This document shows positions 1-55,992 of a stretch of 64,000 bases of DNA, in pieces (the first letter of the stretch is position 1; the number at the start of each line of letters is the position of its first letter). The stretch lies in contig CM102286.1 in NCBI GenBank assembly GCA_046563655.1, positions 8,060,001 to 8,124,000 of the forward strand, in the 5' to 3' direction. Source of the DNA: Yuukianura sp. NJ FZ-2021. Its lineage: Eukaryota. The position numbers were made by a program, and so were the translations under genes. The notes beneath the pieces were generated by a model, which made no database searches, was not told the DNA's origin, and saw only the letters and a list, made by a program, of their open reading frames with translations.

Positions 1-259
1 GAAAATTATGTTCAAATAGCCTAGAATATTTTGCATTTAAATTCGTATAAATCTATAGACTAATTAGGGGTTAAGGGCTCAGGCTTGACGACGGGGTGCC
101 AACGTTTTTGGCACTTTGTGATTGTGTTGTAAATTCAGTTCATGTCAAAAGGTTCCATTATGCTTGGTTCCTTTTGTTCTCAGCAATTTTAGTTGAATAG
201 ACGCGGAGGTGGTGAACCGACACGGTGAAAAGGAAACACTTAAAGACTTCAAGGCATCA

Positions 260-3152
260 CTACCCTGGACGGACGCCCAACTTTTCTAATACTCGAACTC
301 CCTTTTCTTGAAATTCCTCTCTGGACATCCAAAATGTTTCTTTATCCTTCATTACATTTGCCAAAACGGCACCGCCAATGAACACCATGTCCTTTCTCCT
401 TGGTGGATCCTCAATTTTAATTTTGAATTTCTGTGATACAAAATCCAAACATCACGAGTAAAATTCAAAATTGATACGTTTACCTTAACGCCAGTAAAAA
501 CCACCCGCAATGTATAAACTCACAGAAAGTTTGTCCGCTTCTCCTTTGAGTACACGCTCCAAGTAAAGTTGTTTGATTTCCCTTTCCAAACGACTAGGAA
601 GACCAGGGTACATGGTGGAACCACCAGACAAAACAATATGTTTGTACAACTCTGGTCGAATGTCGATATCCGCTTGCTGAATGGTACTGAAAACAAGCTC
701 TGCAATGCCTGTAAAATAACTACGGTTTAGTTAATGAGCTATTACGACAATGGGCCAGATGTTGACGAATAACGACAGGAGCGCCAATGGCGGGAGAAAC
801 GTATTATTATAGTACCTTGTCCTTCTACATTGATAAGGTGGGGTTGAAAAAGTGCTTCGGGAGCCTCGAACCTTTCACCTCCGACTTTGATTACCCTGCC
901 GTCGGGTAACTGTGAAATATAAGTAAAAACAACGATGAGTTTAGGTTTCACGTTTTTACTCAACGTTTTCCTAATTCACTTACCGTGTAAGACTCGACGA
1001 GAACAGTTGTTTCTAAGGCTAATCTCTGCTCTGTTTCCAAATTGTAGCCAATGTAGCAAAGTTTTTCCTTCATCATTCGAACGGTTTCGAAGTCGGCAGA
1101 ATGGTTGAATGCGTACCCCCGAAGCAGAAGTAGCTGCAATGAAATTGAACAAACAAGTTCTAGTTCACATCGAATCGAATGTAGTGCGAACCTTAATATT
1201 AAGGGGCAAATGTGTATGGATTGAATACCTTTATAAGATATCTGGTAATATCTCTTCCGGCGATGTCGAGCCTACGCGTTAGATGGGGTAGCGCAAACCC
1301 ATCGTATACCGGGCAAATATGAGTGACACCGTCGCCGGAATCCACAACAACTCCAGTCAGAAGCCCTTGTGCGTAGAGAGTAAGTACTGCTTGGATTGCT
1401 ATGTAGGCTCCTGCGAATCCATACTTCTCGAACATTACCTAAACAGCATCAGCATAATATTGACAACACCATCACAATAACATCAATTCATACAATTAAT
1501 TAGTAAAGCCAACTAATATAAGACAACCTCACCTCAATCATTTTTTCGCGGTTTTTGGTAGGATTCATCGGTGGCTCTGTAAGCATGACTTTGCATTCGG
1601 TGGGATTTATGTTCATTTTCTCCGGTCCAAAAGTGTAATCCCATAAATGAATCATGTCTTCCCAATTCCTGGTTCAGAAAATGGAAATATTTCTAAGTTA
1701 AAGCTTCCAATACTTAGCAAAAATACTTCTTCAAAGATTGATTTGTCCAACCCATAAGCTTACCGAACGATTCCATTTTCCATTGGATAATTTACTTCCA
1801 ACATAGACCTCAGTTGACTCGCGTCATCCCCCAGCATTAAGTCCTGAATGGTTTTCAAAATGTTGTAAATTAGTATTTTATCACTGATTCCATGCGTTTA
1901 CGAAGCAGTTACCACTTTCAACGAACAAATATGCAGTTATAGCATGCAATGAAATTGTTTGTTCCTTGTTCGAAGGTCAGCAAACTAAACCACATAGTAA
2001 TTAATAACGTTGAAGACGTGGAGCTTTAAATAAGGCTCAATTTCATGCACTGGAGCCGATAAACAATCATGCGCTCGTAATACTCCATGCGACAGCCAAA
2101 GCCAAGTGTGATTCATGGTGTTCTCAAAGGTCATCTTACGGGTATCTGTTGATCCATCTTGGGCAGCAATTTATAAAATTAAAAGTTATTAAATCGTCAA
2201 TTTAATTCCAAACTACACCTCCCTAACGTTACACTGTTATTGTTTTCATGAGCATTTCAGTGGTGAGTAAAACAAAAAACGATGGCCAAGGCCACATCGG
2301 AGGTCGGGGTGCGATTTTAAAATCAAGTCACGACTGTTAACATAAAGTTCGATGTTCCAAGCGAGTTAAAGTGTTTTAAAATATCTATTAGAATCTCCAG
2401 TGAGCACTCTGCACTCTGCAGCATATCGTTAACATTCAATACACTAACATTGAAAACGGGTCAAAAACTTACTTTAACCTCAATTCCCTGCATGAAAAAG
2501 AAAAACAATATTAAAATTCGGTTGCACAATTTATCAAATACTAGCCTAGATGTAAGTCGTATTTACCGGTATCCCATGCTTTCTAAATTAGGAATTAAGA
2601 TTCTTAATTTAAGAATGACCCACACGATTACCACAGCATCTAAAACTGTAAAGCCCAAGCCCGTGCCGGTATGGAACTTATAATAAAACACATGAACACG
2701 TAATTTAAAGGTGGTAGCATGATTCGTTCGTAACCCAAGCTCGTTTCGTTACCCTAAAACTTTAAAATGTACTAACTAAGTTTGTAAGACCAGCAGTTTT
2801 GCCAAGTAAATCATAAGAATCCTTAATCGTATCGTGATACGACAGTGCAGTTAACTTCCAGTACATTGCGAAAAATTCGTTTATGCTTATGCTACGTATT
2901 ATGTAGGTACCTTGACTTCTATATCGCCGATTTTGTTGGCAGCTCTTATAATCGGCCTTCCTACCATTGATGGGAATATATGTTCCGGAAAGTTGGATCC
3001 CGCATATCCACATTTCACAAACTGTAATAAAGAACAGATACATTTAAAGCCAAATGAATAATTTACTACTTAACATTGGTTTAAATCTAGAAGACCAATC
3101 CTACCCCGGTTCCATTATCACACACTATAACTTTCCTTCCTTGACTATCCAT
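260..3152 (-). CDS. Arp2: Actin-related protein 2 (Arp2/3 complex subunit), 9 coding exons, 394 aa
   Basis: Exons (minus): 3105-3152 ([16 protein letters not shown]), 2911-3021 ([26 protein letters not shown]), 1764-1843, 1533-1668, 1229-1438, 984-1133, 816-909, 524-708, 260-430. All introns are GT-AG and phases are consistent. The total of 1185 nt gives 394 aa plus stop, the canonical Arp2 length. Motifs such as [24 protein letters not shown] and [19 protein letters not shown] are Arp2-typical. Confidence 0.97.
2140..2157 (-). CDS. Arp2: Candidate alternative 18-nt microexon of Arp2 (MDQQIP, inserted in the D-loop after IEVK)
   Basis: The minus strand reads ttttaattttataaattgctgcccaag|ATGGATCAACAGATACCC|gtaagat. 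It is phase 0/0, stop-free and lies in the only long Arp2 intron (1844-2910). This is the junction where fly and vertebrate Arp2 carry a short alternative exon. Confidence 0.65.
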
Positions 3153-3527
3153 TTCGGAACGAAGTCTGTCAAAGTTCGTCAGCCGGTTGAAGTCGAGTTT
3201 ATTGGATTGACAGTTCAAATGTTGAATAAATTAATTGTCACTAATCCCAAAGTAAATAGACCGGCTACCGGCGTTAATTGAGTAATTGGATATTTGTAAA
3301 CAAGAGGAAGTTATAAGGAAAATGACAGTTAATCCAGTGGAATCAGACACCACCCAATTCCAATCCGTTTCCTGCCTTTCAAATTCAGTGATTCACTCGT
3401 ATCAAACAAACCACTTCACCGCACAAGAAGCGGAACACCAAGACAACGTAGCACTTTCAAACACACTTGAAAATTTCACACCTTCACCCCACCTCTTCTC
3501 AAATCCAAATTCAGATTTACAGTTGAG
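3153..3527. promoter_or_regulatory. Probable bidirectional promoter region between Arp2 and the PAK gene, with a candidate non-coding first exon of the PAK gene ending at 3527
   Basis: The Arp2 ATG at 3152 points left. A strong plus-strand donor GAG|gtaagg lies at 3527/3528, and acceptors (ttttgccag at 7243, cctag at 7266) precede the PAK ATG. No transcript evidence is available. Confidence 0.35.
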
Positions 3528-3911
3528 GTAAGGCTGACCGAAAACATTTGTAACCACGTAGAGTAGCCACTGCACTGCTACAATGACCGGTGACACTATG
3601 ACGTAACAGATTTTGCCACTTTAGGTTAGAGTGCTTACAGAAGTTGGCACTTAGATGCGGCCGACTATTCTAAGGCTTGTTAGCCACCGAAGAAAGCCGA
3701 TGCAGTGGTTGCAAGCTTGGTGGTTGCTTTAATGTACCCTAATGCTTACGGCAACCAAATTCACTCGACATTTCAAATTTCCCGCATCCCGGCGTTCTCC
3801 AAACTCACAGACACTTTCTTATATGATAACATGAAATAGCGTTGCTCATTTAGTTCGATTTATACTTATGAAATTAGGTCCACAAGTCCACATTTCTAAA
3901 AATTCCAAATA

Positions 3912-4847
3912 CCGTAAATGCTCTAATATAAGCGCGCCGCTTATAAGAATTTTCGACCATTCGGACGCGCCTCTATTAGAACACTATTTATTACCGCAAT
4001 AATTAATAAGTTTGAAGTGAGCCAAAATTCAATTAATAGTGATCCCATTCGTCGCTGGCGTCACTGTTGCTTTCTTCAAGCCTCCTCCAAATGTGCCCAC
4101 TGTAGTAATACTTGGCATGTCAAAAAATGTTCCAGTCATGGCAATAATATTTGGGTTGGAAATTTTATTCGTAACAGCCAGCTTGGAAGTCTACATGACG
4201 AATTCGACAAGCTACTCAAATAACGAATTTGGATCTTTTTGAGCCGACGACGCTTTCTTTCTCAAACTGAGGTCATGGTGCATCATAAATTTTTGTAGCC
4301 AACCACTGCTGGCCTGAAATTCGTTTGTTTGAAGCACTGCAGAGTAGACTTCCCCAGCTTTCACACGAATAGATTTGAAGGAGACACTTTGCTGGTTGGT
4401 GCGCTGAATTAAAATCCAATCGTAAACCATTTTGTCTGCTTCTTTAGAAAGTTGTTTTCTCGAGTCGAAAGGTAAAATTAGTTAAATTTTTCCGATTTTA
4501 TCCTTTTGCTTCAGCCAACTGAAGACTTGTTTTGGGTGTATTCCGAAGTGAGCTGCGTTACCATCCGTGGTATTAGTAGAAGCGTACTGAACCACTTTTA
4601 ACCTAAACTGAGATCAAACGATCGTATTTTAGTTACACCATTTTTAAAACTTGTATTTAAGTGCTACATTTTGATTTCAGTCAAATTAGCAACATAGAAG
4701 TTGAACAGATGGTGTCACTTTGCTCTAGGCTCTGCTTTAAACTCAAGTTAGCTACCGCGCTTATATCACAATTTGCCCCCGCTGAAACCGCGCTTGCATT
4801 AGAGTATGCGCTTATATTAGAATACGCGCTTGCATTAGAGCATTTAC
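3912..4847 (-). mobile_element. Degenerate pogo/Tigger-like DNA transposon (internally deleted, HTH fragments only)
   Basis: Imperfect TIRs (cc)gtaaatgctctaatataagcgcg and cgcgcttgcattagagcatttac, flanked by TA. Minus-strand fragments FRLKVVQYA...AHFGIHPKQVFSW and VYDWILIQR...FQASSGWLQKFMMHHDLSLRK resemble pogo N-terminal and CENP-B-type HTH domains. The frame is broken. Confidence 0.75.
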
Positions 4848-7270
4848 TAAATTCAAACCCAACCTTTTACGCCAAACCGAATTCGAAAAAATTCAAACCA
4901 ATTCAATTGCTGCGTGTTCACAAATTGTCATGATTGGATTTCCTAACTATTTAGTAATTTATCCAAGCAAACCTACCCCAAACATTATAAAAATTCATTT
5001 TAGTAATAAAAAGTTACGCCTATGGTAATATTTGAAAAAATAAATTAAATAACTTGAAATGTAATGTAACGTAATGGAAGTAACTTTATGAATATGATAT
5101 GCCATGAACACAACTAAACTCTTGGTATCTAGAATCAAATTTCGCCAATTCGGCTTCATCAGAAGTGAAACTGACTTGATTTTACAATCGCTCAAGTTTT
5201 ATTTTGCAACTGGTGTCAAATGTCAGTTACTGACCCTTCATTTTACTTTTGAAAAAAAAAAAAACGACATAGCATAGTATTAATATCAATTGCTGCTAAA
5301 ATATTCAACTTTTTTGAAGTCAACCCACAATTTTCATATGTTCTGTTTGGCCCTTCATTCTAGAAAAGTTCAACTGGTAATTTATGATTGAATTTTAGAT
5401 TAACAAAAAACAGGAGGATACAGGATGTTTAGATTCTAAATCAAGGCTCATTTCCCATATTTTCAAGTTCCCCCTAACCGTAAGGGCCGAAATGTACAAC
5501 GTTGTACTTTTTCCCACGGAACAACGACTAACACAACGCCCTACAAAGGGCCCTTTCAAGTCTTTCTACTGCTGCTGTTATTTTCTTCCATCCTAAAGTC
5601 AAATCCGGCTCCGTTGTTCTATCAATGGATCTCTCCTTGGTTTTTTTTTTGGTCGAAGTGTTATAATATTTGAAGTGGTTCAGTAGCCCTGGCTCTCAGA
5701 GGGGTAGAAATTTGAAGGAGATGTCATGGCAAAACGGCGTCCGGTCCAGAACTTTTTCGTCTTCTTCGTTATAACTCTTATTGTAATACAAAGGGAAAGC
5801 GTTCTTGACTGCGGGTTATATCCACCTCACCTGTCCATTTGCTTTTACCTGTGCAAGACTTGGCGTCTTAACAAGCTCTATGATCAAAACCTAACCTAAA
5901 CCATTGTATTTTTGTACTGAAACACTCCTATGGTTAGTCGCAGAAACCAAAAAACTTTGGTTTAGAAAGAAGCATCCCCAGCCCAAGGATCGTATACCTT
6001 CCAAGAAGTTGCATTTGGGATGATATAGAATTTCAGAATGGTTTTTGGGCTGTTGGAAATTCATCGTCATCATGTTGAATGTAACGATATACTCTAGCAG
6101 TATCCCTACTTTTTACCAATACCTAGTACCTAGTGTAACTCAACAGTCAATCTGCCACAACTACAAAGTCAAAGCAAAACATTTACGTTTTTAGACACTA
6201 TAGGAGAGCAACAGAAAACTAACCATTCATCGCACCGTCTGCCATCAGAGATTTTATAACTAACTATTATTCATTCTGGATCAAGGACATACACACCTAC
6301 AGTACACAACTAAATCTTGCTGAACCAGCATCAAACATTCCATAGAGATCACAATTCACAACATTCAAAAATTTAGCATTAGCAACACAACATCACCACG
6401 TTTACCTTGGATCTACCCTGTTAACTACGCGTTTCGTTACATTCACAGTATTAGTTGAACTTTTGCATTTTAGTTTCCCTTGTTTTGTTAAAAAGTGAAG
6501 TGCCTACGTTTTTGTTACAATAGAATCGATCGATACCAATTCCGAATTGTATCTCCCCCGGAACCTCAAATATTGACGAAACTTTTTTAGACTTTTTGTG
6601 TTTACCTAAAAAAGTCCATTGATAAAGGACCAACTTATTCTGCTGTGACAGATTGTTGTGACTTTTGGAGTTTCTACGGAAAACGCCTTCATCACACATT
6701 CAAACAAAAACTAACTTGGACACACACGGAAGATCAAGAAGTGAACAAAAGTTGAGAATTTAATTAATTGTTGGTGAATTTTGGAATTGGGCGGATGCTC
6801 GCAGTGGTACGCTTGACTGAATTTGCAGTGGATTTATACTAATTTCTACTCGTGCCTAAACTAAACTCAACGGCAAATGACAAAAGATCCATTGTTGTTC
6901 GTAAGTAGAGTGAAAAGGATTCTGGTTTGGCCAAACTGTCATTTTGGAACCTGTGTATGTTAAGCAACCTAACTTTGGCAGACCAGAACGGTACAGAGGA
7001 TGTGTCATATCCGACGACGTCTTAAGTTTTAGTAACCGCAAATCATCACTTAAGTGAACTGACGCCGCGGAATACCAAAAGAACTGAATCACGACGAAGT
7101 CAAGTCACTTCATTGTCTTAATTTTGTGCCATTAATTTGACCAAATTCAACGGAAGTTCAGTTGACCACTTGAAAGCTCTGGGCTTTTGTTTCTCAGTTT
7201 TTGAAGAAAGTTTAAATTATTTTGTTTATTAAAGTTTTGCCAGAGTTTCATGAAAATTAAGCCTAGGGAA

Positions 7271-12525: not shown

Positions 12526-55992
<43,467 letters not shown>

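Follow-up and report, generated by a model that had tools for sequence, protein, structure and literature searches.

Can the only long intron of an Arp2 gene hide exons so short that a gene model of nine ordinary exons passes over them, and, if so, are they an invention of the lineage in which they are found? This question is raised by a window of 64,000 nucleotides (nt), the whole stretch of DNA that was analysed, from the springtail Yuukianura sp. NJ FZ-2021 (contig CM102286.1, positions 8,060,001 to 8,124,000), in which the original prediction had placed an 18-nt microexon in the region of Arp2 that encodes the D-loop. We consider it distinctly probable that intron 2 of this gene bears two in-frame cassette microexons, here called A and B, which correspond to insert types of other arthropods, and that B would be skipped by default and activated by an Rbfox-type protein, possibly with the help of an eMIC-type factor, likely in nervous tissue.

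When the nine exons are spliced by script, the translation is free of internal stops and gives a short isoform of 394 amino acids (aa). The closest named proteins are springtail Arp2 proteins at 92.5-93.9% identity, namely Orchesella dallaii Arp2 (P0013, 93.9%) and Folsomia candida isoform X1 (P0062, 92.5%), and the protein P0012 is 94.4% identical. Seven introns measure 74-107 nt, and intron 2 is the sole long one. The features needed for the argument are these:

Arp2 coding region, 260..3152, minus strand: nine exons, stop codon included.
Arp2 exons, minus strand, from high to low coordinates: 3152-3105, 3021-2911, 1843-1764, 1668-1533, 1438-1229, 1133-984, 909-816, 708-524 and 430-260.
Intron 2, 2910..1844, minus strand: 1067 nt, phase 0, between the D-loop codons K53 and D54; host of both candidate microexons.
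Candidate microexon A, 2473..2487, minus strand: 15 nt, GIEVK; acceptor tttttctttttcatgcag, donor gtaagt.
Candidate microexon B, 2140..2157, minus strand: 18 nt, ATGGATCAACAGATACCC, translated as MDQQIP; acceptor ...attgctgcccaag, donor gtaaga (2139-2134).
UGCUGC, 2163..2168, minus strand: positions -11..-6 of the B acceptor, inside a 53-nt AG-free zone.
Five sense GCAUG motifs, 1891..2090, minus strand: 2090-2086, 2072-2068, 2048-2044 (UGCAUG), 1947-1943 (UGCAUG) and 1895-1891.
Single GCAUG, 2575..2579, minus strand: 88 nt upstream of candidate microexon A.

Both units sit in this phase-0 intron between the codons for ...IEVK and DLM..., which is the position of the Arp2 D-loop microexon described as 'Arp2L' by Powell, Palafox and Schroeder (bioRxiv 10.1101/2025.10.12.681909; PMC12632905). 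Both are in frame, stop-free and bounded by canonical AG/GT sites, with A (15 nt) reading cag/.../gtaagt and B (18 nt) reading aag/.../gtaaga. A check of the sequence confirmed B as first described, that is, as an in-frame 18-nt unit (2157-2140) with a gtaaga donor inside the sole long intron; on the exon side, this donor is preceded by CCC. An in-frame AG..GT unit is unremarkable by itself, because 37 such units of at most 51 nt occur in intron 2. By its splice signals A is the best of the 37, having 16 pyrimidines in the 20 positions ahead of its CAG acceptor and the donor AAA/gtaagt, and the original prediction overlooked it.

More can be learned from relatives, whose DNA was obtained through a metagenome scan with a 56-aa open frame containing exon 2 as the query (66 loci). 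Four loci, L017, L008, L041 and L001, encode proteins 90-98% identical to the window Arp2. L017 has the same nine Arp2 exons and 98.5% aa identity. Because its three separately aligned exon segments are just 81-89% identical in nucleotides at this level of protein identity, silent sites have diverged considerably. When the two loci were compared with blastn, the only islands with an expect value (E) <0.01 in the interior of intron 2 were the two microexons plus their splice sites.

The first island (window 2518..2467, L017 5248..5303; E 1e-4) pairs GIEVK with GIEVR (L017 5283-5297), and the four differences within A are three synonymous third-position changes and one K-to-R replacement. The second (window 2186..2130, L017 5567..5621; E 2.7e-4) pairs MDQQIP with LDQQIS (L017 5594-5611), with D-Q-Q-I retained and one synonymous change. 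As patterns of substitution, those in A and B fit coding constraint, and L017 keeps the splice sites and frame of both units. An alignment of this intron across relatives had been proposed as a check on B, and it came out in favour of the exon: the unit and its splice sites are kept in L017, and the GCATG blocks discussed below are partly aligned. An intron-hosted small RNA is ruled out as the cause of the conserved islands, because an Rfam scan of window positions 1-5000 brought no family to its threshold; a weak ceN30 match (21.6 bits vs a gathering threshold of 65) lies outside the Arp2 gene.

At the position of B, L008 (94.4% aa identity) has an aligned 21-nt unit, QEEHDIA (E 0.005), which shares 6 of 7 residues with QEDHDIA, the insert of the annotated Folsomia candida isoform X1. 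The 18-nt units of L041 (GFAHIS) and L001 (EIFNVP), at a comparable position and with GTAAGT donors, were picked by pattern, without significant alignment. The B units of the window, L017, L008, L041 and L001 thus measure 18, 18, 21, 18 and 18 nt, and all are stop-free and flanked by AG and GTAAG. Elsewhere in the scan, no convincing microexon was found in L019, L020, L027 and L030, whose exon-2 tails differ from the hexapod type, and L005 gave weak-donor candidates only. The locus L035 carries an A exon of fly and beetle type, DLHVD, at 692-706, and no in-frame unit with a final P occurs in its intron of 1425 nt, an arrangement that would be in line with the absence of B where only DLHVD isoforms are annotated.

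What, then, could control the inclusion of B? It is known that a downstream (U)GCAUG promotes exon inclusion through Rbfox, and Li et al. reportedly described RBFOX-regulated microexons in 2015. The window has five sense GCAUG motifs 50-245 nt downstream of the B donor, just as first counted (plus-strand positions 1891, 1943, 2044, 2068 and 2086, two of them TGCATG, within 245 nt of the donor). Five copies in 296 nt may be compared with a shuffle mean of 0.48, and 0 of 20000 dinucleotide-preserving shuffles reach 5. Sliding windows of 296 nt hold five GCATG in 10 of 6371 cases on the minus strand and in 0 of 6371 on the plus strand.

The position of the motif also recurs. Over the five loci, 12 of the 13 intronic GCATG lie downstream of B, within 31% of the length (binomial 8e-6), and in the four relatives alone all 7 of 7 do so (p 3.9e-4), though both p-values are optimistic since relatives share ancestry and their independence is overstated. 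The antisense control, CATGC, is found five times upstream and four times downstream. The copy at 1947-1943 forms an invariant GCATG block in the three-way alignment of the window, L017 and L008, and the copy at 1895-1891 aligns with L008 position 2377. Two marks to be expected of an Rbfox-type exon are present here: a proximal downstream (U)GCAUG above background, and a motif position kept across species. The single GCATG at 2579-2575 was considered as a repressor site for A, and this idea was dropped because L017, L008, L041 and L001 have 0 copies upstream and hence no counterpart to it.

According to Torres-Mendez et al. 2022 (PMC8797185), eMIC-dependent exons are marked by UGC near the 3' splice site and long AG exclusion zones, and further by a UCUC-rich tract and a CUAAY branch site. 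UGC stands at -11 and -8 of the B acceptor, within the AG-free zone of 53 nt. The TGCTGC had been placed immediately upstream of the AG; it is indeed near the AG, at -11..-6 (2168-2163), but not flush against it. A UGC no more than 20 nt from the B acceptor occurs in 5 of 5 loci (the window and four relatives), and the AG-free zones at B in the four relatives span 40-80 nt; the combination of UGC with a long AG exclusion zone is therefore the same in 4 of 4 relatives. Of the further marks, the window has neither the UCUC polypyrimidine tract nor a strong CUAAY branch point, and an exact CTAAY is found upstream of B in two of the four relatives.

From these comparisons, the 18-nt microexon B is very probably real, and its putative splicing code is conserved. 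The unit behaves as a selected coding microexon would, and its flanks carry the motifs that had been named for it, which recur in the relatives.

Is the exon a lineage-specific one? Three protein searches yielded 235 proteins, and the junction could be read in 203. Inserts are present in 53 of these 203 Arp2 proteins and are of 33 distinct kinds, two of which are long runs resembling retained intron. They can be sorted as follows:

A-like inserts of arthropods: DMYVK, EEIYVK, GYCVR, QEFCVR / QELSVR / QELCVR, DLHVD, GLHVD and DICIG.
B-like inserts of arthropods: EYANVP, EWAHFP (a prawn), DMLNMP, EVLEMP, GVTTNLP, ELP and DMP.
Joined A+B inserts, the order always being A then B: DMYVKEYANVP, GYCVRELP, GLTVRELP, DLHVDGVATNLP, GLHVDGVASTLP and QELSVRDVLEMP.
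Single inserts of 7-8 aa in chelicerates: EILSDTHH, ESAADNH and DQPTDAR.
Inserts of vertebrates: NNKKM and NSKKM.

The order in the window, with GIEVK upstream and MDQQIP downstream, is the order of the joined arthropod forms, and A+B isoforms are annotated in four insect orders. The original prediction had taken MDQQIP for a lineage-specific 6-aa replacement of the usual 5-aa insert, by divergence or convergence. This part has to be given up, as the window also has a 5-aa insert, GIEVK, upstream in the same intron. Because it matches a second insert type, mostly with a final P, known from annotated proteins of damselflies, bees, wasps, beetles, bugs and a prawn, the predicted 6-aa unit is best regarded as an old feature shared among arthropods and not as an invention of this lineage.

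The origin of A deserves a remark. GIEVK echoes the end of exon 2, GDIEVK (2911-2928, minus strand), and many insect A-type inserts end in V or I and then K or R, like the exon-2 tail. All five codons common to GIEVK and the exon-2 tail differ, at the third base only, and because of this a recent duplication of the exon-2 end is excluded. Two origins are conceivable: A may be a copy of the exon-2 end, or its final K or R may be no more than the exon side of the donor consensus.

Each microexon would lengthen the D-loop between K53 and D54 independently of the other, and the predicted isoforms have 394, 399, 400 and 405 aa. With its strong splice sites, A would probably be broadly alternative, like the DLHVD exon of flies. 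The weak AAG acceptor of B and the UGC in its long AG-free zone suggest default skipping and the need for an activator. Rbfox-type proteins bound to the conserved downstream (U)GCAUG cluster would then bring about the inclusion of B, to which an activator of the Srrm234 eMIC type may add. Rbfox-type control is rated as likely and eMIC dependence as possible, because the UCUC tract and exact CUAAY are missing from the window. The tissue would likely be nervous, with muscle as a possibility. What the analysis shows directly is the sequence, the frame, the splice signals, the conservation between species and the enrichment of motifs; we infer that the long forms are transcribed in this springtail, as we do their tissue pattern and the factors that bind.

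Published libraries bear on the tissue. Table S1 of Powell et al. (version 1; PMC12632905) gives for the locust EFAHVP (head) and EDVYVK (thorax, head), and for the bee DVLNMP (worker head), the 12-aa QEYCIRDVLNMP (queen, drone brain) and QEYCIR (larvae, ovary, gonad). Among these entries the B-type inserts come from head or brain libraries and the A-type from larva, gonad and thorax, in a table that records detection and is not a quantitative comparison of tissues. By analogy, the head and brain detection of the B-type inserts of bee and locust would fit a nervous-system form.

Some observations weigh against this picture of intron 2 and should be kept in mind, besides the shared ancestry of the relatives, the two units picked by pattern and the detection-only nature of the table. 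The B acceptor is poor, being AAG with 12 of 20 pyrimidines ahead of it, and the window region upstream of B lacks UCUC, CUCU and any exact CTAAY, having just sites of TTAAT type at -35 and -25. The terminal residue of the B insert is S in L017 and L041 and A in L008, which makes 'ends in P' a loose rule. At springtail level, one of four proteins has an insert, that of Folsomia candida X1 alone, and searches with the whole of P0012 and with P0062 residues 31-80 brought up no further insert-bearing springtail protein. A contig resembling complementary DNA (cDNA), L003, with 97.4% protein identity, is the short form, and in the 18 of 66 loci where exon 2 is joined directly to exon 3 (cDNA-like or intron-less there) an insert is present in none. 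Such insert-free contigs are weak evidence either way, because assembled contigs usually retain the main isoform only. Finally, Torres-Mendez et al. 2022 (Table S2; PMC8797185) place the fly Arp2 microexon in the ASE group (alternative in many tissues), as neither eMIC-dependent nor Neural.

The alternative that survives best, although we think it rather unlikely, accepts B as real and conserved and denies it neural or eMIC control. In that case the GCAUG motifs would serve Rbfox in muscle or germline, or a different factor, and the UGC would simply be a by-product of an acceptor rich in T and C. Rbfox proteins are expressed in muscle as well, and the missing UCUC tract and exact CUAAY speak the same way. 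So does the sole Arp2 microexon with published regulation data, the DLHVD exon of the fly, which besides its ASE class is reported to be expressed in embryo, ovary and head (Powell et al.; PMC12632905). Set against this are the head and brain libraries in which the B-type inserts of bee and locust were detected, and the UGC that all five loci keep no more than 20 nt from the acceptor, together with the long AG-free zones.

An improbable variant concerns the borders of B. An internal CAG at 2148-2146 would, if used as the acceptor, reduce the insert from 18 nt to 6 nt (IP). A CAG makes a better acceptor than an AAG, and this one is just 12 nt further downstream; L017 has internal CAGs at the same place that would give QIS or IS, and some insects have 3-aa B inserts (ELP, DMP). 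However, the 12 nt ahead of the CAG are identical to L017 at 10 of 12 positions, one of the two changes being synonymous, and the Folsomia isoform matches the most upstream AG in L008, which gives 7 aa. Under the scanning rule, splicing uses the first AG that follows a long AG-free zone, and this favours the full 18 nt.

It is very improbable that the 18-nt unit is no exon and instead an intronic regulatory element (an enhancer or silencer for A or for removal of the intron) that is open by chance, A alone being spliced in: the 37 in-frame units, the short-form cDNA-like contigs, the weak AAG acceptor and the frequent conservation of intron flanks of alternative exons (Torres-Mendez et al. 2022; PMC8797185) would allow it, but AG, GTAAG, a length divisible by three and freedom from stops are kept in five loci with proteins 90-98% identical, the L008 unit resembles the annotated Folsomia insert in 6 of 7 residues, and position and order match the A+B isoforms annotated in four insect orders.

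Keeping to two cassette microexons with B under Rbfox-type control, one may tentatively widen the picture, with less confidence than for the window itself. Arp2 of Pancrustacea could have two anciently separate D-loop microexons: A, broadly used and echoing the end of exon 2, and B, switched by GCAUG and UGC, providing a nervous-system form of Arp2/3 and absent in flies. The retrieved dipteran isoforms carry DLHVD only, and on this reading Drosophila work would not have met B because it is absent in flies. If it is true that a second insert, under its own control and with a conserved Rbfox-type code, exists in most arthropods, the Arp2 microexon would be two switches, only one of them studiable in flies. 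In addition, gene models with the short isoform only, such as the Orchesella record, would miss up to three isoforms.

Other features of the window may be recorded here. On the minus strand at 94-151, in the Arp2 3' untranslated region (UTR), a stretch of ~45-58 nt is 81-83% identical to L003 (1382-1423) and L017 (7426-7480), and the remainder of the 3' UTR does not align with them; the stretch may have a conserved regulatory role. A broken remnant of a pogo/Tc5-type transposon (4215-4613, minus strand) is found immediately upstream of the Arp2 start, and repeats that resemble it occur near 3920-3990 and 4790-4870. Its frames, broken by stops, match HTH_Tnp_Tc5 (4215-4481; E 2.3e-11) and a Brinker-type DNA-binding domain (4485-4613; E 1.9e-5). 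Two tandem arrays at 15331-21355 and 22458-29396 consist of a 387-389-base pair (bp) unit in ~15.5 and 17.9 copies, with 97% matches and a half-period of 194 bp; between them lies a G/C-rich repeat of 44 bp (21520-22028). The strand asymmetry of CATGC in the window (87 vs 33) is largely due to these arrays.

How does this locus compare with known systems? The nearest is Arp2L. Powell et al. [quoted passage not shown] The introduction of the same work notes a contact between the Arp2 D-loop and ArpC3 as the Arp2/3 complex is activated, and the fly insert alters inhibitor sensitivity and sperm actin structures (PMC12632905). The window units share with Arp2L the gene, the junction (after ...IEVK and before DLM...), the frame and the size range of 3-12 aa. 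They differ in that version 1 of Table S1, to which a later version may add species, contains no springtail and neither GIEVK nor MDQQIP. The passages of that paper on the variants do not sort them into two positionally distinct exons, and the words Rbfox, SRRM4, brain, springtail and Collembola do not occur in its main text.

With the neural microexons that depend on eMIC (Srrm234/SRRM4), as characterised in Torres-Mendez et al. 2022 (PMC8797185), B has in common a short exon, a weak 3' splice site, a UGC near the acceptor and a long AG exclusion zone, but the window is without the UCUC-rich tract and the exact CUAAY, and the host intron is long and not short. With cassette exons activated by Rbfox it shares five GCAUG 50-245 nt downstream of a very short candidate exon, in a motif that is positionally enriched and partly aligned in relatives; binding by Rbfox and dependence on it are predictions for B of the window.

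RefSeq isoforms (among them Hetaerina americana X1-X3, Homalodisca vitripennis X2-X5, Folsomia candida X1 and Macrobrachium rosenbergii X7) have two insert types in the same order as the window. Insect and prawn isoforms show A and B alone or joined, as in DMYVK / EYANVP / DMYVKEYANVP and GYCVR / ELP / GYCVRELP, and Folsomia candida X1 carries QEDHDIA at the B position. These isoforms were compared as protein records alone, several of them automatic predictions, and to them the window adds the intron sequence. The phenomenon of Arp2 microexons is already known, and the known picture is unchanged in kind; what is new is a springtail example with both exons and the intron sequence around them, useful chiefly because it points to another Arp2 microexon, possibly a neural one, beyond the reach of fly work.

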